Shown here: positions 2,470 to 54,421 of the stretch, in pieces
How positions within the stretch are numbered: position 1 is the stretch's first letter
Layout: each line of letters begins with the position of its first letter
DNA from: a phage
Reading direction: 5' to 3' (one strand)
Sequence record: PZ151149.1
Length of the DNA stretch: 64,000 nucleotides
The notes under the pieces: generated by a model
The model's input: only the letters and a program-made list of their open reading frames with translations
Database searches by the model: none
Told to the model about the DNA's origin: nothing
Program-made: the position numbers and the translations under genes

Positions 2470-3583
2470 CATTATGTTCAGCGCGGTTCGCTACTCCCGC
2501 GCCCGTTCTCTTGCGAACTGCTACATGTCACCATGTAGATCAGACTATATCACATTCTCATAGAGAATCCTGCCATTTCGAATCGCTTGATTCTACTCTA
2601 CTCGGTTCGTTACCCTTTCGATAGTCGTTGAACAACTGCATCTTTAAGCTCATTTTGATCAAACGGTGTTCTCTTACAGTATCCGCTATAATTCTTAGCA
2701 AAAGGTTTCTTCTTACCAAAAATCTCTTTTCCTGAATTGTGTGCTTCAACAAGAAAATTCACCATTTCATCAAATGTGAAACTTGCAAATTTAGCATAAG
2801 TTTCATTACGTTTTGACATTATTTTACTCATAACTTCCGGTCGTTTAGACGCTGAATTTTCGCGTTTCTCGCCAGTATTAAATGATACCAACTCACCGGA
2901 AACATATCTAGGATCATCACAACTAACTCTAAACCGATTTCCTTCCTTATCCTTAACGATAACAGTATTCTTTAGCTTTTCTGCCATAGAATCAAGACCT
3001 TTTCGTATAGTGTCCTCATCAGCCCCGAAATATTTCTTTCCGCTCATATCGGTTCTGGCTTTTCCGGTCTTGTTTTCGGATATTTTCAGTCTAACTTCCT
3101 CTCGCTTGGCTGGGTTATTGTCTCCAGCGAATGCATCTTTGGTTAACGCCTTCACTTTATCGTCATAAGATCCTCTAGAGATGAAAGCATATGCTCTCTT
3201 GCATTCACCGTTATTGAATATTAAGCACAATAACCGATGCGCCTCGACGTGGTCTTCAAACTTAAGCCTAACAAGATTCCATTTATCTAACCGATATTCA
3301 GGGAACATTGACTTCGGGCATATATGATGCACCTCGGAATATTCTTCACCCTGATACGGATTAGACACCAGTTTAATGTAGTCGTTTAATGCTTCCTCGT
3401 TATGTATTTCGTACTTTCTTAAAATGTCTTTCATCTCGCGCCTCCAATGTATATCAATATCTATATACATTATAAGACACGTTAGCTCAAAATGCAACTG
3501 CTGCTGATTGTCTCCTTAGAGATTTCCCAGCAATTAAGCAGGTTATTCGATCACTGTCACCAGTGAAAGCCCCATATCAGTTT
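2470..3583 (-). ncRNA. Group I (IA2, T4 td/nrdB-like) self-splicing intron interrupting gene 43
   Basis: 5' exon ends ...CCCU with intron GGGG internal guide 10 nt downstream (P1); 3' part has AACGACUAUC ... GAUAUAGUCUG ... CAUGGUGACAUG ... CUGAACAUAAUG-G nearly identical to the T4 td intron core/3' end; exon joining restores SL-YPSIIRQ reading frame. Confidence 0.8.
2610..3434 (-). CDS. Intron-encoded HNH homing endonuclease
   Basis: ORF inside the intron; motif EVHHICPKSMFPEY...N...HVEAH typical of HNH; ATG at 3434 preceded by GGAGG. Confidence 0.75.
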   Translation of the reverse strand: MKDILRKYEIHNEEALNDYIKLVSNPYQGEEYSEVHHICPKSMFPEYRLDKWNLVRLKFEDHVEAHRLLCLIFNNGECKRAYAFISRGSYDDKVKALTKDAFAGDNNPAKREEVRLKISENKTGKARTDMSGKKYFGADEDTIRKGLDSMAEKLKNTVIVKDKEGNRFRVSCDDPRYVSGELVSFNTGEKRENSASKRPEVMSKIMSKRNETYAKFASFTFDEMVNFLVEAHNSGKEIFGKKKPFAKNYSGYCKRTPFDQNELKDAVVQRLSKG

Positions 3584-32817: not shown

Positions 32818-33106
32818 GTTCTCGATTCTCCATATTATGCAACAGAACAAATTGTTGTGCGGCATATCCCCCCATAATAAAACACTGCCTAGAATCCATA
32901 CATTTACTACGAGCATACATCTTCATAATATGGGCATGAAATTTCTGGCTGGTTTCAATGGAAGGAGATATTTTGTTTACATATACTATCATTGCGCCGT
33001 CGAAATAATCAGTAAAGTCACCAGTTGGATCATATTGATCAGCACTGACACTTCCGACCGCAGTCAAGCATATTGCCGCTGTTAGAGTTTTACGAATAAA
33101 TGACAT
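32804..33106 (-). CDS. hypothetical secreted protein (N-terminal signal peptide)
   Basis: MSFIRKTLTAAICLTAVGSVSA-DQ... typical Sec signal. Confidence 0.5.
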   Translation of the reverse strand: MSFIRKTLTAAICLTAVGSVSADQYDPTGDFTDYFDGAMIVYVNKISPSIETSQKFHAHIMKMYARSKCMDSRQCFIMGGYAAQQFVLLHNMENREHEIQ

Positions 33107-33174
33107 AAGTCATTCCCCCAGATTGAAAATATTCAGTTATATTTATAATCCGGGGCTTTATTTATGATTAACTC

Positions 33175-33771
33175 TTATTTGGTAGTACCATCAATAAAAT
33201 GTTTACGACACACAGAAACATATTTATCCTCTGCACCAACTTCTATTTGAGCACCATCGCGAATAACATTACCATCTTTATCTACGCGAAGGACCATAGT
33301 CGCTTTCTTGCCACAATGACAAATACCCTTCATTTCGACCAGTTTATCAGCAAATGCCATTAATGCCGCAGATCCTTCAAATAGATTGCCCTGAAAGTCA
33401 GTGCGAAGGCCATAGCACAGTACAGGGATATTAGCATCATCAACAAGCGCACACAAGCCTAAAACATGCTCTTTAGTCATAAATTGGGCTTCATCTACAA
33501 ATACAGCATCAGGACGCCAGCGATCCGTTCTACGCTTACCTAACGATTCACGATAAACCAAGTCGAAAAGATCATCCGATTTAGTGAAGGTGATCGCTGG
33601 AGCACTTAGGCCAATTCGGGAAACGACTTCACTTTCTGAATCTCGATTATCAATCGCTGGCTTAAGAATTAATACTCGCATATCACGTTCTGTATAGTTA
33701 TAAGCACTTTGTAACAGAGAAGTTGATTTGCCAGCGTTCATAGATGCATAGTAGAAATATAATTGCGCCAT
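33175..33771 (-). CDS. tk: Thymidine kinase
   Basis: Walker A AMNAGKST, VDEAQF, CYGLRTDF, VCR.H; strong similarity to T4 Tk. Confidence 0.9.
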   Translation of the reverse strand: MAQLYFYYASMNAGKSTSLLQSAYNYTERDMRVLILKPAIDNRDSESEVVSRIGLSAPAITFTKSDDLFDLVYRESLGKRRTDRWRPDAVFVDEAQFMTKEHVLGLCALVDDANIPVLCYGLRTDFQGNLFEGSAALMAFADKLVEMKGICHCGKKATMVLRVDKDGNVIRDGAQIEVGAEDKYVSVCRKHFIDGTTK

Positions 33772-34064
33772 TAATTAATCTCCAAAAATCCAACAAGACC
33801 TAAACCGATATAAGTCCAGATACCAATAAAAAAGATGTTAATGCTCATGGCAAGGATAAACCCTTTCAGCGTTTTGGGATACCCGACCCAATATTCCCGA
33901 CCATCTTCTAACCGGATCAGTTTATTGCCTTGCGAGTCCATATCAACTACAACATGTTTATTTCGAGATTGCAATAGATATTGTTTTACAATCTCTACAC
34001 CCGCCATAATAACAATAACGAAAATAAAAGTCCACACAACAAGATTAATGATAGTCTCAAGCAT
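33771..34064 (-). CDS. hypothetical membrane protein
   Basis: Two predicted TM segments. Confidence 0.5.
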   Translation of the reverse strand: MLETIINLVVWTFIFVIVIMAGVEIVKQYLLQSRNKHVVVDMDSQGNKLIRLEDGREYWVGYPKTLKGFILAMSINIFFIGIWTYIGLGLVGFLEIN

Positions 34065-34275
34065 TTTCTATCACCTCCACCCAATCAGGTGTTTCCTGAA
34101 AGACTCCTTCACCTTCATGATGGTCGCAACCTTTATTGCTACAATACATCCACCAATCCCACATTCCCCACGGTAAACGCTGCATATCGTCGTTACAGCA
34201 AGTGAAGATAATAGGCCAACCACATCTAACACATCGGCAGTTTTCTTTCATGTGAGCGGTATTAGGCTTCTTCAT
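34057..34275 (-). CDS. hypothetical Cys-rich protein
   Basis: CRCVRCGW...CC...C...GCDHH; ATGA overlap with upstream stop. Confidence 0.4.
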   Translation of the reverse strand: MKKPNTAHMKENCRCVRCGWPIIFTCCNDDMQRLPWGMWDWWMYCSNKGCDHHEGEGVFQETPDWVEVIENA

Positions 34276-34466
34276 AGATGACTCCAATATAATCGACATT
34301 TACATTTAGGGCAATGCGGTTCTTTAATATAATACCCGTCTGTCTTTGGAACACTAACAGGAGCGGTTTTTATATTGTATTCAGTGAAACAACGAAAACA
34401 AGTTACGTTTTCTACAGACTGACGTTTCACCCAATCACCGGAATATAGATCATTTTTATTTGTCAT
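34272..34466 (-). CDS. hypothetical zinc-ribbon-like protein
   Basis: CFRC ... CPKCKC pairs; ATG at 34466. Confidence 0.4.
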   Translation of the reverse strand: MTNKNDLYSGDWVKRQSVENVTCFRCFTEYNIKTAPVSVPKTDGYYIKEPHCPKCKCRLYWSHL

Positions 34467-34911
34467 ATTCAACCACCACAATATTGATATCTGGAGTAGC
34501 AATATTAATGATCTCTTCTACACATTCCCACTCAAGGCCACCGATACCGCAACCGATTTTAGGAATATAGAAAGGCTGTATAGCACCTTCAAAAACATCA
34601 TTGATAGTCTCAAATCCTTTCAGGATAGCACCATATTCAGCATTTGGACCCGGTCGGAATTGGGTATAGAGATTAACCCCGCACCAGTTATAACCATTAA
34701 CTTGATGCGTCCAGACACTAAACCCACCCAGCTTTTCTACCTTACCGCGAGAAGTTTGCTTGTCAATCTCTAACGCTTGTGGGAACTCTTTCGCGATCTT
34801 CGCAGCAATACCAGCGCCCATAGTATGAAAACAATTACAACCATGAATTAAATGACCGTTTCCTTGTTTAAACAGGGCGATGAGATCGCCCTTTACAGTA
34901 TCAATAATCAT
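34456..34911 (-). CDS. Macro-domain protein (ADP-ribose binding/processing)
   Basis: HGCNC, MGAGIAAKIA, GCGIGGL motifs characteristic of macro domains; ATG at 34911 with GGAGG SD. Confidence 0.6.
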   Translation of the reverse strand: MIIDTVKGDLIALFKQGNGHLIHGCNCFHTMGAGIAAKIAKEFPQALEIDKQTSRGKVEKLGGFSVWTHQVNGYNWCGVNLYTQFRPGPNAEYGAILKGFETINDVFEGAIQPFYIPKIGCGIGGLEWECVEEIINIATPDINIVVVEYDK

Positions 34912-34926
34912 AATATAAACCTCCAA

Positions 34927-35286
34927 TTAGTCACGGGAAGACAACCCAGCCATAAAACGGCTTAAAAGCGTGTCACGATAAGCAAAGCATAATTGCTTAT
35001 CAGGGGCAGTATCACACAGGTTGCGTTTTGTTTTAGCGAAACTGGCAATACTAAGATCCCATGCTCGATTTTTTCGTTTTTCATCTCGGCCTTGTTTATA
35101 GGCTTCGTCGAGTTCAAGTGCGATAAAATCGCTACACATGTTATCATCATCACAGAAGGTTTTAATGATCTTTTTGTTGATCTCAAATCCTTTGTATTCG
35201 AACTTTGGATAAGGTCGCTCATTACTAGCAAGCGCACCAGCAGAGAACATCATAGCAATCATAGCAATTATTGTCAACTTTTTCAT
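34927..35286 (-). CDS. hypothetical secreted protein
   Basis: N-terminal signal peptide MKKLTIIAMIAMMFSAGALA. Confidence 0.5.
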   Translation of the reverse strand: MKKLTIIAMIAMMFSAGALASNERPYPKFEYKGFEINKKIIKTFCDDDNMCSDFIALELDEAYKQGRDEKRKNRAWDLSIASFAKTKRNLCDTAPDKQLCFAYRDTLLSRFMAGLSSRD

Positions 35287-35293
35287 ACATTCC

Positions 35294-35884
35294 TCAATAG
35301 CGTTTAGTTTTAAGAATGCCTTTACTCTTTAGATGGTTAGCTTTTTTTAGTACGTCATCAGCATAACCTAAACCGGCTTTATAGTTCCACCCTGCATTGT
35401 AAGAAGCTAGCGCGAGTCGGATATTACCGTTTCGAACATCCAGCCAGTATGCTAACTCATCCATCGCGTAGAATGCAGAAACCTCGCGATTCATGATAAA
35501 GTTGATAGTCTGGCGATCACTCATTTTAACACCGCGCTTTGCATTTTTCGCTTTCACCGTTTTAAGGTAATTTTGAAATAATCCATAAGCATGATGATTT
35601 TTCTTTGGTGATAAGTTTGCACCCGCGCTTGATTCTTGCCATGCGATACCCGCCAAGATGTGACCTAAACCCTTTCCGTTATAGCGAATATTCGGATGGT
35701 CCTTTTTCAACTTACCGCTTTTCTCGAATTGCTCGCCGTATTGATAGGCGAAATGTAAATTATCTAGTTGGTGTGCTGTAAAGTTGTCTATCGGCGCTTT
35801 TTTGATCGGTGCGCTAGTCGATGCGTGTGTAGCACCAACGGCTAGTGACAGACTCAATACTATCGCTTTTAGAACTTTTAACAT
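35294..35884 (-). CDS. Secreted lytic transglycosylase (SLT-domain) protein
   Basis: Signal peptide then GIAWQESS ... YGLFQ ... SYNAG motifs of family-1 lytic transglycosylases. Confidence 0.6.
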   Translation of the reverse strand: MLKVLKAIVLSLSLAVGATHASTSAPIKKAPIDNFTAHQLDNLHFAYQYGEQFEKSGKLKKDHPNIRYNGKGLGHILAGIAWQESSAGANLSPKKNHHAYGLFQNYLKTVKAKNAKRGVKMSDRQTINFIMNREVSAFYAMDELAYWLDVRNGNIRLALASYNAGWNYKAGLGYADDVLKKANHLKSKGILKTKRY

Positions 35885-35969
35885 TAATTTCTCCTGTTTG
35901 GCTTAACTTTCTGATTCCATAATATAGCCCTATCACCAGAAAGTCAAGCATTAATTTAACAAATTTCCA

Positions 35970-36392
35970 TTATTGGTCTACCCTCAAAACAACAGCCGAC
36001 ATTTTACCCGCAAGTCGTTTTGGATTCTCTATAATCATTCGGCAGCATAGACCGTGATACGGTTTACCCTCTTCGATTAGATCTACTGTCATTCCGATCC
36101 ACATGTTACCGTCAGTAATTTCTAATCGATTAGGTCGGTCTTCCATTTTCAGGAAGTCGAAGATCTCCGGCAAACGAGTTTCTACCTTATTGAATAGTTC
36201 CATTGTCTTATGTTCATCGATATGACGATCGGTTAATCTGTCGATCATATGTGGACTAAAGCGAATGAAAATATACTCGCCGTAACCATCATTCAAGCAC
36301 TTTTCTTTGATCTGCGCATTGGTTTTGCGCATTTCGGTTTCGAAGAATCTGCGCAGCTTACTACGGCGAACATGTACGTTAATTGTTTCCAT
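35970..36392 (-). CDS. hypothetical protein
   Basis: ATG at 36392 with AAGGAG SD. Confidence 0.45.
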   Translation of the reverse strand: METINVHVRRSKLRRFFETEMRKTNAQIKEKCLNDGYGEYIFIRFSPHMIDRLTDRHIDEHKTMELFNKVETRLPEIFDFLKMEDRPNRLEITDGNMWIGMTVDLIEEGKPYHGLCCRMIIENPKRLAGKMSAVVLRVDQ

Positions 36393-36393
36393 T

Positions 36394-36732
36394 TTATTCT
36401 CCTTTCTTGAACAAATTGCGAAGCCAGTATACAAACGGGATTTCTTTAAACTTGAATTTCTCTATAGTTAATTCTTTAGTAGCAAGATGAATACCATAAG
36501 AATCATGTGTCACGATATGCCATTTTCTATAGTCCAAATGTGAACAACCATTTGAATCTAGGTTAATAATAGTTTCTCGCTCACTAGGATTGTTTTTCCA
36601 CGATTTTGTAATCGGATCGCACATAATTCGACCTAGCGTACCATGAATAATCTCGCATTTGTAAACCTTTCCGGCAGTGATATAAGCGCAACCGTCATAG
36701 TCGGTATAAACAAACACTTCTTTAACACTCAT
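36394..36732 (-). CDS. hypothetical protein, tandem paralog 1 of 3
   Basis: GCSHLDYRKWHIV motif shared with next two ORFs; ATG at 36732. Confidence 0.45.
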   Translation of the reverse strand: MSVKEVFVYTDYDGCAYITAGKVYKCEIIHGTLGRIMCDPITKSWKNNPSERETIINLDSNGCSHLDYRKWHIVTHDSYGIHLATKELTIEKFKFKEIPFVYWLRNLFKKGE

Positions 36733-36763
36733 TTTAATACTCCTTTGTAGTTTCGATGGGGGT

Positions 36764-36792
36764 ATATTACTACCCCCGTTTTGACGTGTCAA
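36764..36792 (-). promoter_or_regulatory. Early promoter with stem-loop (TTGACA-17-TAATAT)
   Basis: GGGGGUAGUAAUAUACCCCC hairpin spans -10. Confidence 0.45.
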
Positions 36793-37038
36793 CTACTTTT
36801 TCAAGAATTTTTTGAGTACATTCCAAAGACCTTTATTCTCGGCTTGTTTTGGTTCTTCGATCAGTGTCCATGTTCGACCGTCTAAGTGTGCACAATTTTT
36901 AAGGCAAATAAAAATCTGGTGTCCCTTATCATCACGGATATAACCACTATTCGCAAATCTTTCATGTGGTGTATATTCATACAGTGTATTCGGTGTAATA
37001 TACTTGCGGTTACTATAAGGTGTCGTTACATATTTCAT
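36793..37038 (-). CDS. hypothetical protein, tandem paralog 2 of 3
   Basis: YEYTPHERF..GYIRDDKGHQIFICL..CAHLDGRTWTL. Confidence 0.45.
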   Translation of the reverse strand: MKYVTTPYSNRKYITPNTLYEYTPHERFANSGYIRDDKGHQIFICLKNCAHLDGRTWTLIEEPKQAENKGLWNVLKKFLKK

Positions 37039-37229
37039 GGTACTAACTCCCAACGATCACCGCGAAGATGAGAACATCCACCATCAAGAAGGATCGTAAT
37101 ACGAAACCCCGCATCATCTTCAATATACCCGATAGTCGGTGGATGTTCGTCGTCTCGTGTCGGGGTAAAATCATACATCTTTCCCGGTGTGATATCATTG
37201 CCTTTATTGCTATTGGTATAAACTTGCAT
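37035..37229 (-). CDS. hypothetical protein, tandem paralog 3 of 3
   Basis: YDFTPTRDD..GYIEDDAGFRITILL..CSHLRGDRWEL. Confidence 0.45.
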   Translation of the reverse strand: MQVYTNSNKGNDITPGKMYDFTPTRDDEHPPTIGYIEDDAGFRITILLDGGCSHLRGDRWELVP

Positions 37230-37250
37230 TTTCTTAATCTCCTACATTAA

Positions 37251-37949
37251 CTAACCACGGGTATAGTGTTCCAGAACAACGGTCAGATGAATATATTCTA
37301 ATAAATCTTTCCAAAAGTCAACATCTGGTTCTTCCGGCATACCGTTTTTCTTTGCCTCTTCACGCGCGAGTTTAACACGCTCGTAGAGATCTTTCAATTC
37401 TTCCCGCACATTATCAAAGGTTCTTTCTCCTAACTTACACGCTAAAATAGAAGAACGTCGCGCGAGAGGGAATTGTAGATCACCAGTCTGATAGATTTCA
37501 AGTAGCTGATAACCAACACGCAGAGCATGAGAAAGGTCTTTCCAGTTACTGAAATACTTTTCAGATTTGGCTACCTGCTTTTTGAGATAACCGGAGCACC
37601 CCCACATACCAACATGATAGAATTTATCGCGATGTGTTCGGATGTATTCCCATTCTCTGGAGGATTCAATCAACATGTTACTAGGCGCGTGCACCATGTC
37701 AATAGCGCCGATATCACCTTTACATGCCAGATTGATAAACCGTTTTAGACTGAACATATTAACGTCAATATCGTCTTTGGTGTTCTTGATACCTTGACCG
37801 CTAGTGCTTTGGTCATAGTGTTCTTTCATCGATCCTAAGATAATTTCTTTCGCAGTCGGAACAAAGATACCACGATAATCTTTATCGGAATTTTCAGTAT
37901 CAAGGCCGTATAAGTGAGATCCGAAGACCATTTTAACCATTGTATGCAT
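37251..37949 (-). CDS. Predicted nucleotidyltransferase (pol-beta superfamily)
   Basis: N-terminal FGSHLYGLDTENSDKDYRGIF matches the GS-x9-13-D-x-D nucleotidyltransferase signature. Confidence 0.55.
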   Translation of the reverse strand: MHTMVKMVFGSHLYGLDTENSDKDYRGIFVPTAKEIILGSMKEHYDQSTSGQGIKNTKDDIDVNMFSLKRFINLACKGDIGAIDMVHAPSNMLIESSREWEYIRTHRDKFYHVGMWGCSGYLKKQVAKSEKYFSNWKDLSHALRVGYQLLEIYQTGDLQFPLARRSSILACKLGERTFDNVREELKDLYERVKLAREEAKKNGMPEEPDVDFWKDLLEYIHLTVVLEHYTRG

Positions 37950-37962
37950 AATTAAACCCTCA

Positions 37963-38493
37963 TTAGTATTTTACGTTACGTCGAACGCCTTTTCGAATCT
38001 GACAAATAGCAGACGGTGAAACATTATATTTTCTTGCAAGTTCTACACCCTTCATATGGGGAGAAGATAAAATCTCTTCCACTTGGTCGTCGGTAAGTTT
38101 TGCGTTTCCGTGGTTCTCTCCCCAATTGTTGTTTAATCCTTCTTCCTTCGCATGAACAAGATTTCGGGTATCTGTCGTCCATTCAAGATTATAAAGGTCA
38201 TAGTTTTGTTTGTTTCCATCCTTATGATTAACTACACGGTAGTTATTTGGATTCGGAATAAACGCAACCGCCATAGCTTTATGCATGTTCACGGTTTTTC
38301 TAAATCCATCCGGCTTATAACATACTGTAAATTTAGAATAACCAGTTTTACCATAAACACTAATATAATTTCCGGTCTCTGTATTTCTAACCCTACCATG
38401 AGAGCTAATCTCAAATTGAGTGTAGGGCAACAGCGCATCAATCACTTTCCATTCTTCGACAGGATGGTCATCACAATATCTTTTAATCATCAT
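37963..38493 (-). CDS. Free-standing HNH homing endonuclease
   Basis: EISSHGRVRN (NUMOD4-like) and NHKDGNKQNYDLYNLEW (HNH) motifs. Confidence 0.7.
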   Translation of the reverse strand: MMIKRYCDDHPVEEWKVIDALLPYTQFEISSHGRVRNTETGNYISVYGKTGYSKFTVCYKPDGFRKTVNMHKAMAVAFIPNPNNYRVVNHKDGNKQNYDLYNLEWTTDTRNLVHAKEEGLNNNWGENHGNAKLTDDQVEEILSSPHMKGVELARKYNVSPSAICQIRKGVRRNVKY

Positions 38494-40058: not shown

Positions 40059-40250
40059 TTAGATTCCTGTGATCCTGCATAGAGTTCTTGTATTAGCACC
40101 AATCAGGATCGCATTAACGGCAACCATTCCCCAATCAACCCACGGATTATTATAAATGCTAAATCCGTTTGCTAGGCCAAATACAAGCATTCCGGTACAC
40201 ATACTCAGAGCAATAATCAACATCACGGTAAAACCAAATGCAAATCTCAT
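40059..40250 (-). CDS. small hydrophobic membrane protein
   Basis: 63 aa, two TM-like segments. Confidence 0.4.
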   Translation of the reverse strand: MRFAFGFTVMLIIALSMCTGMLVFGLANGFSIYNNPWVDWGMVAVNAILIGANTRTLCRITGI

Positions 40251-40251
40251 A

Positions 40252-40467
40252 TTATTTTCCTTTTCTCTGTTTACGTTTATAAAAGTAATACATTACCTCA
40301 TCGCGTCCGGTGATCCAACATGCTAGGGCGGTAAACAGGTTTACAATTCCCAACACACCTACGGATGCGGCGCTGTCAACAGACATAGGAACAGTAAAGG
40401 CCATAACTAACATAGCAACGCCACAAATGACATTAAGCACCATTATAATAAGACCGAAGAAAACCAT
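40252..40467 (-). CDS. small hydrophobic membrane protein
   Basis: ATG at 40467. Confidence 0.4.
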   Translation of the reverse strand: MVFFGLIIMVLNVICGVAMLVMAFTVPMSVDSAASVGVLGIVNLFTALACWITGRDEVMYYFYKRKQRKGK

Positions 40468-40469
40468 TG

Positions 40470-40649
40470 TCAATCCTCCGACACAAGAAAACCAACAATC
40501 ACGCCAGTGATAAGACATGATGCACCGCTAATAAGACAACCCGCGCCAAGTGATTCCCACCATATAAGGGAAGCGACGATAACACAGAGTCCCCAGACTA
40601 CAGCAATCACAACATAGGCAATGGTCGCCCAAAACATATATTTGTTCAT
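40470..40649 (-). CDS. small hydrophobic membrane protein
   Basis: ATG at 40649. Confidence 0.4.
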   Translation of the reverse strand: MNKYMFWATIAYVVIAVVWGLCVIVASLIWWESLGAGCLISGASCLITGVIVGFLVSED

Positions 40650-40834
40650 AATAAATCCCATTCACCAAACAAATAAGAAAAAAGCCATATCAACAGAAAC
40701 GAGGCGATTGATCCAGCAAGCAAAATGATATTAGAGAATCCGCCGTCTATCCAGCCAATCAAACAGAATACGCCAGTATAGAAGCACAACCCCAGCACAA
40801 AGCATACTATAATCAACCATAGATAAAACGCCAT
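40646..40834 (-). CDS. small hydrophobic membrane protein
   Basis: 62 aa, GGAGGG SD. Confidence 0.4.
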   Translation of the reverse strand: MAFYLWLIIVCFVLGLCFYTGVFCLIGWIDGGFSNIILLAGSIASFLLIWLFSYLFGEWDLL

Positions 40835-40895
40835 AGAAAGCCCTCCAGTTAGCTAATTTAGTGCGGGTAGTACATTCCCCTACCCGCTTTGTTAA

Positions 40896-41054
40896 TCAAC
40901 GTAGAGCTTGTTCTAAAGCGATTCCAAACCATCCGCAAACAACACCCATACAGACAGCGACAAGAAGACTCATTCTCTCTTTAGGGATCATTGCAATCAT
41001 AACAACAACCATACAGAAAGCCATTACCATTGCAGTTAACATTTGTTCAATCAT
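40896..41054 (-). CDS. possible small membrane protein (52 aa, below ORF-track cutoff)
   Basis: MIEQMLTAMVMAFCMVVVMIAMIPKERMSLLVAVCMGVVCGWFGIALEQALR read from minus strand. Confidence 0.3.
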   Translation of the reverse strand: MIEQMLTAMVMAFCMVVVMIAMIPKERMSLLVAVCMGVVCGWFGIALEQALR

Positions 41055-41056
41055 TA

Positions 41057-41377
41057 TCACACCTTCAAAGTCATAGACGCATAGACATTAATACCAGGCC
41101 AGTTAGGATCGCAATTATACTCAACATCCCATAGATAAAGCGGTTTAGATGTATCAGCCAGGTTTTTAAAATCTTCTACCCACATTTCAAGGCTATATGA
41201 AGGATAAACTAGGCTATCATACCCTCCGTAACGTTGGCCTACTGGTCGGTCAGTAAAGACTACCTCAAGATCCGGTAATTCTTTTTCTAGGATAACCGCC
41301 AGCGCATAAATCAGGCGGTCTTCCTTGTTACGCTGCCGTAGGACCGTTGTCAGTTGGTTCGTCTGGTTCACTAGCAA
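41057..41377 (-). CDS. hypothetical protein (start uncertain, overlaps upstream ORF)
   Basis: Longest ORF starts at TTG; GTG two codons in with GGAGG SD is plausible. Confidence 0.4.
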   Translation of the reverse strand: MLVNQTNQLTTVLRQRNKEDRLIYALAVILEKELPDLEVVFTDRPVGQRYGGYDSLVYPSYSLEMWVEDFKNLADTSKPLYLWDVEYNCDPNWPGINVYASMTLKV

Positions 41378-41648
41378 CTACCTCCACATTTTCACAGAAT
41401 GAAATTTTCACAGACACAATTTTACCATAAGTGAAGAATGAATATACATTATCGAGATATTCAACGTCACCTACAATCACATCAAACTGCGGATCAGCAA
41501 CTGCCGCAACATATTCTACCAGTTCATCAAGAGAATGCAACTTAATTTCATCAATTCGGCTGTATTTGGTTGCATCTTTGATCTTAAAACCACGTTCTTT
41601 CAGTTTATCGATCAGAATTTCGCGCGGAGTTTCAAACAGTTTACTCAT
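41328..41648 (-). CDS. hypothetical protein
   Basis: 106-aa ORF with ATG start. Confidence 0.45.
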   Translation of the reverse strand: MSKLFETPREILIDKLKERGFKIKDATKYSRIDEIKLHSLDELVEYVAAVADPQFDVIVGDVEYLDNVYSFFTYGKIVSVKISFCENVEVVASEPDEPTDNGPTAA

Positions 41649-41666
41649 AATATAATCCTCACACAG

Positions 41667-41867
41667 TTAATCAGTATAGTCAATAATCTTGCACATTACA
41701 ATTGAAAGAACAAAGACCGCAACCCACATATAGATCCCAGCAATCAATGCTACTTCAATATCACAATATCCAAGAAGTACAACAGGAATAAAAACAAACA
41801 TACAGACCAGCGCAATGAAACTAGCATATACGCTCGAAAATATGATGGCACTATTATTAATTTTCAT
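41667..41867 (-). CDS. small hydrophobic membrane protein
   Basis: 66 aa. Confidence 0.4.
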   Translation of the reverse strand: MKINNSAIIFSSVYASFIALVCMFVFIPVVLLGYCDIEVALIAGIYMWVAVFVLSIVMCKIIDYTD

Positions 41868-41868
41868 A

Positions 41869-42051
41869 TTAACAATCCTCGCGGTTTAAGTCAACTATAA
41901 TTGCATACAGCATAATGAAAACACTAGCAGATCCTAGAATCAATGCACCGTCACATTTTGAAACGCGCTCATCAAAATGTAACATTATCCATCCGAGGAT
42001 GTTAAAGGCGCAGACCGCGCCTATGTTCGCTAACCAATTAATCTTTTTCAT
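41869..42051 (-). CDS. small hydrophobic membrane protein
   Basis: 60 aa. Confidence 0.4.
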   Translation of the reverse strand: MKKINWLANIGAVCAFNILGWIMLHFDERVSKCDGALILGSASVFIMLYAIIVDLNREDC

Positions 42052-42059
42052 AATATACC

Positions 42060-42386
42060 TTAGAAAGAAACAGTTTTCAAGAAATCCAGATTTTCAGTAC
42101 CGAAAACAGAAAAGTAGTGTTTTCCTTTTTCGGTTTTAGAGAAAGCGATTGTCTTCTCTACATGGTGACGGAAGCCAGACAGACGATCACCCAGGTCAAG
42201 GCGGCAAGCGTAAGTAGTGCCGTTTTCGAAAGTAACCTCGATTTGAGTTTTGTCATATTCGCTTTCATAGGCTTTTGCTGCCGCGTCCTGTGCTTTACGC
42301 TCGAAGTCTTCGAAGTGGAATACTTCGTTTGCGTTAGCGAATACAGAAGATTCAGAGAAGATAACTTTAACAGATACTGGTTTCAT
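42060..42386 (-). CDS. hypothetical protein
   Basis: 108 aa; preceded by promoter and conserved leader. Confidence 0.5.
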   Translation of the reverse strand: MKPVSVKVIFSESSVFANANEVFHFEDFERKAQDAAAKAYESEYDKTQIEVTFENGTTYACRLDLGDRLSGFRHHVEKTIAFSKTEKGKHYFSVFGTENLDFLKTVSF

Positions 42387-42428
42387 TTTGATACTCCTTA
42401 GTAGTTCGTGTTTCGTTTCGATGGGTGT

Positions 42429-42457
42429 ATTATGATATACACCCTATCGTGTGTCAA
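42429..42457 (-). promoter_or_regulatory. Early promoter TTGACA-17-CATAAT
   Basis: Minus-strand hexamers upstream of 42060..42386. Confidence 0.45.
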
Positions 42458-42465
42458 CAACTTTT

Positions 42466-42654
42466 TTAGTCTTTTTTCATAATTTCTAGGGCAGTTTCTA
42501 CCGCACCTTTCCAACCTTCCCACATAATGGACATAGTGATGAAGGTAAAGCACCCGCAGGAATCAGCCTTTTTAGAAATAAACCATTCTACAAACTCTTC
42601 GCTCATACCATGCTCTTTAGCGGATTCGCGTAATTGTTCAATTTTGTCTTCCAT
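42466..42654 (-). CDS. hypothetical small protein
   Basis: 62 aa. Confidence 0.4.
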   Translation of the reverse strand: MEDKIEQLRESAKEHGMSEEFVEWFISKKADSCGCFTFITMSIMWEGWKGAVETALEIMKKD

Positions 42655-42663
42655 AGTATCACC

Positions 42664-42852
42664 TCAACACTTAACGTTATTCAATCGATTTTGAAAGTAC
42701 ATATAACAAGCATAGTTCTGTTTTGGTTGTACCGTATCAGATAGACACGCTTTTACAGCCTCGCGGTCCGATGGATCTACACCCTCAGCTTTAAGTAATG
42801 CTAAAATCTGGTTATAGCGTACTCTTAGTTGTACTAATGGTTTCTCCCCCAT
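42664..42852 (-). CDS. hypothetical small protein
   Basis: 62 aa. Confidence 0.4.
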   Translation of the reverse strand: MGEKPLVQLRVRYNQILALLKAEGVDPSDREAVKACLSDTVQPKQNYACYMYFQNRLNNVKC

Positions 42853-42863
42853 AATATACCCTC

Positions 42864-43091
42864 TTACAGTTGATCAGCAATGTATGCGGTGCATTTGCGG
42901 AGTTTAGCCATAGCACCACCTTTCATGTCGCTTGCGCCTACAATGTTCATGATCTCTAAGCGATCAGCCGGATTCAGTCTAGTAGCCCAGATCTGGTTAG
43001 CCAGTTCCATTTTACCCATCTGCGGTTCCATCTCAAACAGTTCACGCTCAAAGTCGATAATTTCTTTTGCTGCGTCTTTAAAGTTAATCAT
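42864..43091 (-). CDS. hypothetical small protein
   Basis: 75 aa. Confidence 0.45.
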   Translation of the reverse strand: MINFKDAAKEIIDFERELFEMEPQMGKMELANQIWATRLNPADRLEIMNIVGASDMKGGAMAKLRKCTAYIADQL

Positions 43092-43120
43092 TTTGATTCT
43101 CCCGTTTCGTTGATGGTTGT

Positions 43121-43149
43121 ATTGTAGGGGAGTTATCCTCCCCTGTCAA
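43121..43149 (-). promoter_or_regulatory. Early promoter TTGACA-17-TACAAT with hairpin-forming spacer
   Basis: Spacer GGGGAGGATAACTCCCC. Confidence 0.45.
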
Positions 43150-43157
43150 CACTTTTA

Positions 43158-43343
43158 TCAGAAATATGCAATATAGTTTGCCAGTCCTACAGAGTCATCA
43201 TTCGGCATTGCTTTTACTGCCAGTTCAAACCCTGCTTCAACTTTCTGTTTAGCGGATTCTTCGTTATAACCCCAAATTACCAGAATAGCTACTACGTTTT
43301 CTTTGCTTACTGCTTTCAGTGCTTTAGTGATGCGACGTGCCAT
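43158..43343 (-). CDS. hypothetical small protein
   Basis: 61 aa. Confidence 0.4.
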   Translation of the reverse strand: MARRITKALKAVSKENVVAILVIWGYNEESAKQKVEAGFELAVKAMPNDDSVGLANYIAYF

Positions 43344-43389
43344 AATTTGATTCTCCGTTTAAGAAAGTGTGTTTCGTTTCGATGGGTGT

Positions 43390-43418
43390 ATTATGCTATA
43401 GGCGGGGTCTGGTGTCAA
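43390..43418 (-). promoter_or_regulatory. Early promoter TTGACA-17-CATAAT
   Basis: Minus strand; followed by conserved leader. Confidence 0.45.
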
Positions 43419-43444
43419 CAACTTTTTTCAAAAAAATTTAGGCA

Positions 43445-43471
43445 ATAAAAAAGCCACTCCGAAGAGTGGCT
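43445..43471 (-). terminator. Rho-independent terminator
   Basis: Minus-strand hairpin AGCCACUC-UUCG-GAGUGGCU + UUUUUUAUU. Confidence 0.55.
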
Positions 43472-43621
43472 TATAGGGGAAGGTAGCGAATCTTCCTTGT
43501 CTCCAACCTGCTAGCGGCCTAGCAAGTGAATGCTTTAGCGTACCGGATCACCCCATACGCTGCAATAAATGCGGCTAGGTGACGTCCAAATCATTCTAAC
43601 CGCGCTGTCTTTAGTTCACTA

Positions 43622-43840
43622 TTATTTATATCGCTTTCTCTCGCGACGTTTTTGATCTTCTTCCTTGATAGAGTTAAATGCATCAAAAAGACACATGACA
43701 CTGATCAGGAACATAACCGTATTTTCTACGATATCCCACGGCTTCGCATCAGTACAGATCCCCCAAACGGTAAGAAATGCAAATAGTGCAGAAGAGATCA
43801 CAAGCATGATACTTGCTAAGATATAAAAAGTCATCTTCAT
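43622..43840 (-). CDS. small membrane protein
   Basis: 72 aa, two hydrophobic segments, basic C-terminus. Confidence 0.45.
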   Translation of the reverse strand: MKMTFYILASIMLVISSALFAFLTVWGICTDAKPWDIVENTVMFLISVMCLFDAFNSIKEEDQKRRERKRYK

Positions 43841-44019
43841 GGTTTTACCTCAATTCTTCGATATTCATCACACATCCACGCAGTAAGCAAGAATCCCAAC
43901 ACATAAGCAACAAAATACGTTAATGCTTCTTCTGGTTCCGTGCTATGTGTCATCAGTAAACCAGCGAGAACAGTCTTAATAATTACATTTAAAATAATTA
44001 GCCACGCAAATAGTTTCAT
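43837..44019 (-). CDS. small membrane protein
   Basis: 60 aa. Confidence 0.4.
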   Translation of the reverse strand: MKLFAWLIILNVIIKTVLAGLLMTHSTEPEEALTYFVAYVLGFLLTAWMCDEYRRIEVKP

Positions 44020-52621: not shown

Positions 52622-54421
52622 ATGCTAATGTTTAATAACTCCGTTAAATGGTTTACCGGAATTGTAGAAAACAGGGAAGATCCATTAATGCTGGGGCGCG
52701 TTCAGGTTAGGATTCATGGTATACATCCTTCGCTATCCGCACACGGTGACATTCAAGGTCTCCCAACCGAAGATCTATTATGGATTACGCCAGTACAAGA
52801 CATTACAAGCGCGGCGATCTCCGGTATAGGTCAAAGTCCTACTGGTATTGTTGAAGGTTCAATGGTATTTGGATTGGCTTTAGATGAACGTTATTTAAAC
52901 TGCGTTATTCTGGGTACTATTGCCGGACAATATACAGAGAAACCACTCACTACAGAAGGTTTTTGTGACCCTTCGGGTGCATATCCTCGTTATATTGGTA
53001 ATGATGTTAATATTCTTGCCCGTGGCGGTATTAACCCAGAAACCGGACAAACAACAAAACCTGATAGTGTCTATATTCGAGATGAAAACACTGGAGTTGC
53101 AGTAAATCCAGACGACGAGCCATTAGATCAAATTCCGGTTGATGATAATCCTGATTTTACAATAGAAAAAATGCTTCGTGGCGATGAGGGATATCGTGAG
53201 AAATGGTATCTTGATTCAGAAGGATATCCGACAATAGGCATCGGGCATTTGATCATTTATAAGAAAACCAGTGATCTGGGTATTATCAATAATGAACTTT
53301 CTAAGCTGGTAGGGCGTGAAGTTACAAACGGAAGACTTACCGCCGAAGAAGTTAGTAAAGTATTTGCCGACGATATAGAAAAGACCCGTCGTGATATGCG
53401 CAAACATCCACGAATTGCACCTGTCTATAATAAATGTAATGCTTCTCGTCGTATGGCATTAGAAAATATGGCGTTTCAAATGGGCGTTGGTGGATTGGGT
53501 AAATTTAAGAATAGCCTTGCTGCAATGCTAGCAGAAGAATGGAAACAAGCCTATGATGGATTACGTCAATCGGTATGGGCTAACCAAACTCCAGGACGCG
53601 CCAACCGTGTTTCTAAAATTATTCTTACTGGTAACTTAGAATCATATGGCGTAATTGCTCCTAAGAAAGAGGAATCAATTTCTGATGATCCGAGAGCACG
53701 TTTGAGAAAAACCCGTATTGCTGCATATAAGACGCAGAGAGCAGAAGAAGACCCAGAAGCACCGTTTACCCCACAAGATACACGAATCATGTTTAAAGAG
53801 CCTAAGAGTTCGTATTCTGCAAGGTATCCATATAACCATGTGTACGAGTCAGAGAGCGGTCATATTATCGAGATTGATGATACTCCTTCTCATGAGCGAT
53901 ATCATCGTAAACATCCTTCTGGTACATTTGAAGAAACCAGACCGGACGGAACGAGGGTAGAAAAGATTGAAGGTGATGATTATCTGATCGTTAAACAAGG
54001 CCGGAAAGTAAACGTTAAGGGTAATTTGCAAGTTGTTGTTGAAGGTGACGCGCAAGTTTATTATATGGGTAATGTGATGCAAACCGTTGATGGTAACGTC
54101 ACGGAATTTATTCGTGGTAATGTTAATCAGACCGTTGAGGGTACAGCTAATATGCATGTTGTAGGTGATGTTACCGCTCAGCTTGACGCTAATTTAACGG
54201 CTAATGTCAAGGGTAATGCTGAATTAATGATCGAGGGTAACACTACCGAAACAATTAAAGGTAACTATGATTTAACCGTTGAGGGTAATTTTAATATGAC
54301 CGTCAATGGCACTAAATCAGATCAGGTTAATGGTGACTGGTCCCGTAATTGTGGTGCAAGCGTTAAAGATATTGCATCGGGTACAGTTAAAATTGATGGT
54401 AGCCGTATTGATCTTGGGTGA
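52622..54421 (+). CDS. 5: Baseplate hub / tail lysozyme gp5
   Basis: N-terminal OB domain similar to T4 gp5, central T4-lysozyme-like domain (GYPTIGIGHLI), C-terminal VxGxxxxx beta-helix repeats. Confidence 0.9.
   Translation: MLMFNNSVKWFTGIVENREDPLMLGRVQVRIHGIHPSLSAHGDIQGLPTEDLLWITPVQDITSAAISGIGQSPTGIVEGSMVFGLALDERYLNCVILGTIAGQYTEKPLTTEGFCDPSGAYPRYIGNDVNILARGGINPETGQTTKPDSVYIRDENTGVAVNPDDEPLDQIPVDDNPDFTIEKMLRGDEGYREKWYLDSEGYPTIGIGHLIIYKKTSDLGIINNELSKLVGREVTNGRLTAEEVSKVFADDIEKTRRDMRKHPRIAPVYNKCNASRRMALENMAFQMGVGGLGKFKNSLAAMLAEEWKQAYDGLRQSVWANQTPGRANRVSKIILTGNLESYGVIAPKKEESISDDPRARLRKTRIAAYKTQRAEEDPEAPFTPQDTRIMFKEPKSSYSARYPYNHVYESESGHIIEIDDTPSHERYHRKHPSGTFEETRPDGTRVEKIEGDDYLIVKQGRKVNVKGNLQVVVEGDAQVYYMGNVMQTVDGNVTEFIRGNVNQTVEGTANMHVVGDVTAQLDANLTANVKGNAELMIEGNTTETIKGNYDLTVEGNFNMTVNGTKSDQVNGDWSRNCGASVKDIASGTVKIDGSRIDLG

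Follow-up and report, generated by a model that had tools for sequence, protein, structure and literature searches.

Background

The closest described counterparts of the system considered here are the bacteriophage T4 genes vs.1, vs and tk.4. The system itself is a three-gene segment at positions 34456-35884 of a 64,000-nucleotide (nt) stretch of phage DNA (sequence record PZ151149.1), and this whole stretch will be called the window. In T4, the three genes are represented in early RNA and their products have been detected as middle-class proteins. The SLT and A1pp matches of these proteins were published in 2006. Citations of a 2009 Geneva thesis describe T4 Vs.1 as a lysozyme that is exported and whose induction from pBAD is toxic. 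This cited thesis is the only source on the activity that was found, and no enzymology paper on either the window Vs.1 or the T4 Vs.1 came up. Vs is known as the "valyl-tRNA synthetase modifier", an annotation that spans hundreds of phage genomes.

More is known about the genetics of these genes. A 2025 preprint reports that tk.4 is the only T4 gene needed under DarTG2 in a transposon screen and that a clean knockout is sensitised; the gene has been named adfM. A PhiKZ macrodomain, also named AdfM, strips DarT2 adducts from DNA in vitro. HIDEN-SEQ transposon data for T4 in LB give mean counts of 26.6 for vs and 22.6 for vs.1, while the genes around them reach 130-650. Counts fall further in M9 glucose, with a log2 fold change of -2.19 (adjusted p 0) for vs insertion mutants and of -0.87 (p = 0.0055, adjusted p 0.155) for vs.1 insertion mutants, the latter a trend only. 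Knockout of vs in T4 causes a defect specific to minimal medium.

The segment in the window is a conserved vs.1-vs-tk.4 segment of the early region of a T4-like phage (Krischvirus). An earlier note on this DNA had described its genes without naming them. In T4-like phages they are annotated as tk.4, vs and vs.1, and they are already named and partly characterised in T4, with published domain assignments. The sole new element is a mismatch between the name of Vs and the export features predicted throughout its family, together with an obligate pairing of vs with vs.1. No mention of this mismatch between name and location was found in the searchable literature, and we regard it as a modest lead.

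Predicted export of Vs and its pairing with vs.1

The middle protein of the segment, left unnamed in the earlier note, is the ortholog of T4 Vs. It matches PHROG 1256 at 1.8e-33, has a precomputed assignment to PF26829 (ValRS_modifier) and finds T4 Vs by BLASTP at 4e-8, while a profile built from the Vs family finds T4 Vs at 3.7e-36. The family is confined to phages. Among 1.84 billion proteins it has 27 representatives, all of 77-134 amino acids (aa), and none of these 27 is fused to another domain.

Signal peptides have been judged here by a crude heuristic that looks for a basic n-region, a hydrophobic h-region and a small-x-small cleavage site. Vs and Vs.1 are the only proteins of more than 100 aa that pass it among the 111 open reading frames (ORFs) of the window. 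Each N-terminus combines a pair of Lys with a hydrophobic core of 10-13 residues and a putative cleavage site of the A-x-A type, ALA↓S in Vs and THA↓S in Vs.1, and the two classical signal peptides proposed in the earlier note are thus supported. The mature part of Vs would comprise ~99 aa. A signal-peptide-like N-terminus is found in 48 of the 49 Vs family members, and the exception is a truncated gene call. Although these features are kept, the signal-peptide region is poorly conserved in sequence. In ~6 of the 49 members (the Karamvirus type, including CC31) a lipobox (LSGC, LFGC, LLGC or LVGC) takes the place of the usual site. The N-terminus of T4 Vs reads MTKILVLCIGLISFSASASA↓DT. Four cysteines, C45, C51, C91 and C100, are invariant across the family with the spacing CX5-6C and CX8-10C. 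The AlphaFold2 model of Vs consists of four helices with a predicted local distance difference test (pLDDT) score of ~90 outside the signal peptide.

If T4 Vs is the tau factor that binds valyl-tRNA synthetase (ValRS), a cytoplasmic protein is required. The sequence features of the family, a signal peptide or lipobox in nearly every member and four invariant cysteines, do not suggest such a location. A cytoplasmic Vs isoform arising from an internal start or promoter was considered and rejected, as no suitable in-frame start follows the signal peptide in the window Vs or in T4 Vs. An internal vs promoter (35277-35249) was likewise rejected as the source of a short Vs, since transcription would begin downstream of the early Met codons. 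The sequence in question is a sigma-70-like site on the minus strand within the signal-peptide codons of vs (TTGACA, 17 nt, TATGAT, with an upstream TG; 11 of 12 consensus matches). Its transcripts could serve tk.4 only, and it may be a chance product of Leu, Thr and Met codons.

The vs gene is tightly linked to vs.1. It lies directly downstream of vs.1, separated from the stop codon of that gene by -8 to +7 nt, in all 38 viral loci that were collected with Vs.1 as the seed and contain vs, and likewise in all 10 loci collected with Vs as the seed. The adjacency therefore holds in 48 of 48 loci, and it persists in Acinetobacter phages where neither regB nor tk.4 is found close by. The reverse dependence is not seen. 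T4-like phages of Aeromonas, and many viral contigs of more distant relationship, have Vs.1-like exported SLT proteins but no vs gene (L042, L045, L046, L051 and L049-L076 of our locus set). In one of these contigs, L072, the SLT-like segment forms part of an ORF of 1572 aa.

In many phages of the T4 type (Jiaodavirus, Gelderlandvirus, Karamvirus and Acinetobacter phages), vs is immediately followed by an additional ORF of 130-143 aa, which is absent from the window and from T4. It is located at 2740-3132 in locus L004, 2818-3219 in L006, 2737-3156 in L007, 2827-3258 in L005 and 2818-3243 in L081. In phage Mineola it has been annotated with a signal sequence or membrane segment.

Vs.1, a predicted exported SLT-type enzyme

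By sequence and by model, Vs.1 is an SLT/GH23-type enzyme with a conserved catalytic Glu, in agreement with the assignment of the second secreted protein in the earlier note. It matches Pfam SLT (PF01464) with 26.2 bits (6.5e-6), above the curated threshold of 21.3 bits, and PHROG 600 at 4.9e-60; Pfam SLT matches 21 of 22 Vs.1 family members. The AWQESS, GLFQ and SYNAG motifs quoted earlier are all present. In 22 diverse homologs, E84, S86, the G101, F103 and Q104 of GLFQ and the S161, Y162, A164 and G165 of SYNAG are invariant, and N163 is nearly so. The heuristic finds signal peptides in 21 of the 22. Homologs of Vs.1 are present in 2086 phage records, including T4-like, Aeromonas and Vibrio phages.

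The AlphaFold2 model of Vs.1 has a pLDDT of 86.8 and agrees with a goose-lysozyme-like catalytic fold. Almost all of its top Foldseek matches in the PDB belong to the family-1 lytic transglycosylases (MltD, Slt, LtgA and Cj0843), with probabilities of 0.93-1.00. A profile search of PDB sequences with Vs.1 gave no match, from which the family can be seen to be divergent. Vs.1 is probably a lytic transglycosylase, in which case its cleavage would be non-hydrolytic and would give 1,6-anhydro-N-acetylmuramic acid (1,6-anhydroMurNAc) products. As the earlier note had stated, this enzyme is separate from gp5, whose lysozyme domain is encoded at 52622-54421.

The Tk.4 macrodomain

Tk.4 is a real macrodomain of the DarG/TARG1 type, with a predicted hydrolase activity. 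Its match to Pfam Macro (28.7 bits, 1.3e-6) exceeds the curated threshold of 22 bits, and it matches PHROG 335 at 1.1e-61. The motifs IHGCNCF, MGAGIA and GCGIGGL are present, as had been noted from the sequence. The best curated match is the macro part of the NCBIfam antitoxin_DarG model (7.9e-13), and the best match in the PDB is the Mycobacterium tuberculosis DarG macrodomain (5m3i, 4.8e-8), followed by others that include BT1257, SCO6735 and TARG1. The PDB matches of T4 Tk.4 additionally include yeast Poa1p. The earlier suggestion of ADP-ribose processing fits these nearest relatives and the protection from DarTG2 that the T4 ortholog confers.

The tk.4 start is most likely the ATG at 34911, which has a GGAGG upstream and agrees with the annotation of phage JSE. 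The TTG at 34926 given by the ORF listing is not the start.

Proposed mechanism and alternatives

Taken together, the three genes are likely to encode an exported peptidoglycan cutter (Vs.1), an exported envelope partner (Vs) and a cytoplasmic protein directed against DarTG2 (Tk.4). For this joint reading, the gene identities, the domain families, the conserved catalytic and export motifs and the vs.1-vs adjacency have been established in the present analysis. For the export and toxicity of Vs.1, the response of the tk.4 knockout to DarTG2 and the fitness values, we rely on the T4 literature. From the export signals, the gene coupling and the common fitness effects we infer a periplasmic Vs that cooperates with Vs.1 in the envelope, and what peptidoglycan remodelling would achieve for the phage is likewise an inference.

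In the proposed sequence of events, vs.1, vs and tk.4 would be transcribed leftward, probably from a promoter in the gap between regB and vs.1. Vs.1 would be made early and exported by the Sec pathway, and cleavage of its signal peptide would leave a soluble periplasmic SLT-type enzyme that cuts the glycan strands of peptidoglycan by means of Glu84. Vs, translated from the abutting gene, would also be exported, as a disulfide-stapled four-helix protein that in one clade is a lipoprotein. It would act in the cell envelope in a pathway common with Vs.1, and the two proteins together would raise the phage yield, most clearly in minimal medium. In the cytoplasm, Tk.4/AdfM would remove the ADP-ribose that DarT2 adds to thymidines of the phage DNA, so that the DarTG2 defence is defeated. 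As regards Vs itself, we propose tentatively that it may be an exported, disulfide-stapled four-helix protein and an obligate partner of Vs.1 that acts on the envelope. The ValRS name would then have been misplaced on this ORF or would reflect a secondary or indirect effect.

Several observations weigh against this picture. In the classical work on T4, Vs is identified with tau, a factor that binds the cytoplasmic valyl-tRNA synthetase and changes its properties. A fold search with the Vs model returned no specific structural relative. The common fitness defect of vs and vs.1 might reflect polarity, with insertions in vs.1 impairing the overlapping vs, and a minimal-medium defect is also compatible with a function in tRNA charging, so that the phenotype suits either account. 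The Foldseek E-values for Vs.1 are modest (at least 0.014), with template modelling (TM) scores of ~0.4-0.5. Finally, Tk.4 has a Gln at the position of the catalytic Lys of DarG and TARG1 (FPTK or ITKK motif). Its LYTQF (residues ~82-86) aligns to the FPTKK of 5m3i in a HMMER alignment, which is pairwise only. T4 Tk.4 (L003, 3923-4390) also has LYTQF, though it is protective against DarTG2.

Vs could instead be a cytoplasmic binder of the host ValRS, with an N-terminus that is not used for export or serves a partial export, and with a place next to vs.1 that reflects inherited order without a common function. Classical T4 work on a phage factor that binds and alters ValRS points this way, as does the knockout defect in minimal medium, where amino-acid supply and tRNA charging matter. 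The mature T4 Vs has a computed mass of 11.0 kDa, near the ~10 kDa of tau, which a processed protein fits equally. This account is rather unlikely when set against signal-peptide features that persist despite sequence drift and the switch to a lipobox in one clade, which together indicate selection for export. The invariant cysteines, the missing downstream start for a form without signal peptide, the unbroken vs.1 adjacency and the insolubility of full-length His-tagged T4 Vs in the cytoplasm also count against it. A small exported protein encoded right after a toxic exported muramidase might also restrain that enzyme, in the manner of periplasmic lysozyme inhibitors or of effector-immunity pairs, and mean counts in M9 glucose are lower for vs than for vs.1 insertion mutants (5.0 and 11.9). 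A pure toxin-antidote pair predicts that the loss of the toxin is neutral, whereas vs.1 insertion mutants are about ten-fold below neighbouring genes, and such a relationship is less likely because the loss of vs.1 is itself costly. Phages of the Aeromonas type and many more distant ones do with Vs.1 and no Vs, and Vs has no sequence or fold similarity to the inhibitors Ivy, MliC/PliC, PliG and LprI/DUF1311. An inhibitory role for Vs is thus improbable.

An exported partnership of Vs.1 and Vs early in infection also has to be weighed against a role of Vs.1 as an auxiliary or signal-arrest-release (SAR) endolysin that helps host lysis at the end of infection. The earlier note had named lysis timing, along with superinfection control, among the possible roles of the enzyme. 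A predicted secreted enzyme of muralytic type with an N-terminal hydrophobic segment would suit that role, and so would the toxicity on overexpression given in the thesis citation. We consider it very unlikely because the T4 gene has early RNA and a middle-class protein and the signal peptide is of the cleavable type, its short hydrophobic core and THA↓S site being unlike the long SAR anchors, which have no cleavage sites. In addition, the gene lies among early genes and not in a lysis cassette, and T4 can do without vs.1 but not without the holin gene t. For Tk.4, the main activity might be the reversal of protein or RNA ADP-ribosylation (for example marks set by the phage's own Alt, ModA or ModB or by other host defences) and not the removal of DarT2 adducts from DNA. 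The TARG1/Poa1p/SCO6735 class acts on protein-linked ADP-ribose or ADP-ribose-1''-phosphate, and the DarG/TARG1 catalytic Lys is missing. Since tk.4 is the single significant match under DarTG2 in T4, its clean knockout is sensitised and antitoxin DarG is the best curated match, this possibility appears doubtful at best, and an anti-DarTG2 function is the reading we retain for Tk.4.

Gene organisation and neighbouring features

Across positions 33000-37500 the window shares 96-97% identity with RB49-like coliphages (genus Krischvirus), among them JSE, Phi1 and RB49, with 97% DNA identity to JSE at the vs.1-vs-tk.4 locus, and this stretch is found at a coverage of at least 80% in 58 phage records. 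The three genes described in the earlier note are real, and their ORFs fill 34456-35884 exactly. All three lie on the minus strand, so that the order given there (the macro gene first, the other two downstream) is reversed, and the coding strand reads vs.1, vs and, last, tk.4. The JSE annotation places vs.1, vs and tk.4 between regB and tk, and the gene order in T4 is identical. A Shine-Dalgarno sequence precedes each gene. The plus-strand ORFs that overlap them are short, and it is the minus-strand genes that have strong homologs. The coordinates are collected in Table 1.

Table 1. Positions of genes, signal peptides, catalytic codon and promoter candidate in the window.
Feature	Position	Strand	Description
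vs.1	35294..35884	(-)	196-aa precursor; predicted exported SLT/GH23-type muramidase, probably a lytic transglycosylase
Vs.1 signal peptide, ~residues 1-21	35822-35884	(-)	predicted by sequence heuristic
Vs.1 catalytic Glu84 codon	35633-35635	(-)	E-S motif
vs	34927..35286	(-)	119-aa precursor; ortholog of T4 Vs
Vs signal peptide, residues 1-20	35227-35286	(-)	predicted; two Lys, hydrophobic core, ALA↓S site
tk.4 (adfM)	34456..34911	(-)	151-aa DarG/TARG1-class macrodomain; cytoplasmic, without signal peptide
Sigma-70-like promoter candidate	35919..35947	(-)	TTGACT, 17 nt, TATTAT; regB-vs.1 gap

The promoter candidate lies ~35 nt upstream of the vs.1 start codon in the 85-nt gap between regB and vs.1. 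A consensus scan gives 10 of 12 matching positions, a consensus match only, and the site would suit genes whose T4 orthologs belong to the early RNA class. No Rfam match to an RNA gene was obtained across the whole window, and the repeats in the region are short chance ones.

Between tk.4 and tk, two small overlapping genes on the minus strand (34057-34299 and 34272-34466) encode phage zinc-binding domains (PF23895, 5.6e-34, and PF23903, 1.1e-23). They occupy the place of tk.1 to tk.3 of T4. A homing-endonuclease gene of 176 aa (37963-38493, minus strand) is located between nrdC.11 and vs.6, as in the JSE annotation, and is a mobile insertion in the early region. Farther along, five minus-strand ORFs of 60-72 aa at 40059-44019 have strongly hydrophobic N-termini and resemble small membrane proteins; these five also pass the crude signal-peptide heuristic.

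Significance

The presence of the standard T4-type vs.1-vs-tk.4 segment in a Krischvirus is confirmed, which as found matters little, and tk.4 can be given the label of a candidate macrodomain against DarTG2. The textbook function of Vs is a different matter, for it conflicts with the predicted cellular location of the protein. The attribution is sixty years old, and a clean minimal-medium phenotype is now available for T4 vs. If Vs does act on the envelope, the minimal-medium defect of T4 vs mutants would be an envelope phenotype and not a translation phenotype. Vs.1 has its own interest as a predicted early exported cell-wall-cutting enzyme that is conserved in more than 2000 genomes of large virulent phages and has no published role.

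Comparison with known systems

The window Vs.1 is 52% identical over the mature domain to T4 Vs.1 (NP_049725), which also belongs to PHROG 600. Both have the signal peptide, the E-S, GLxQ and SYNxG motifs and the position between regB and vs. They differ in that 13 additional residues (STSAPIKKAPIDN) follow the signal peptide in the window protein. With the bacterial family-1 lytic transglycosylases (Slt70, Slt and MltD of Pseudomonas aeruginosa, LtgA and Cj0843), Vs.1 has in common the modelled fold of the catalytic domain, a single catalytic Glu followed by Ser at the end of a helix, and the GLxQ and AYNxG motifs. The resemblance covers only the ~150-aa catalytic core, at 15-23% identity. 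Vs.1 is without the superhelical, LysM or lipid-anchor modules of the bacterial enzymes and, unlike them, has its own conserved N-terminal helix (QxDNLxYAYxFGEQ).

Tk.4 is 44% identical to T4 Tk.4/AdfM. It shares with the DarG macrodomain the macro fold, both glycine-rich loops that bind ADP-ribose and the Asn of HGCNC, and differs from DarG as a stand-alone protein that does not have the C-terminal DarT-binding domain.

The window Vs is 27% identical to its T4 ortholog (NP_049724), a member of the same PF26829 and PHROG 1256 families, and the two are alike in length, signal peptide, four cysteines and gene position. The published function of T4 Vs is cytoplasmic, whereas sequence features throughout the family speak for export. 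In the latter respect Vs resembles two other T4 proteins, Spackle and RI, which are also small, Sec-exported and early and act in the periplasm, and which have no sequence relationship to Vs. Spackle inhibits the gp5 lysozyme. RI binds the holin and is encoded 2 kb from vs in the window.

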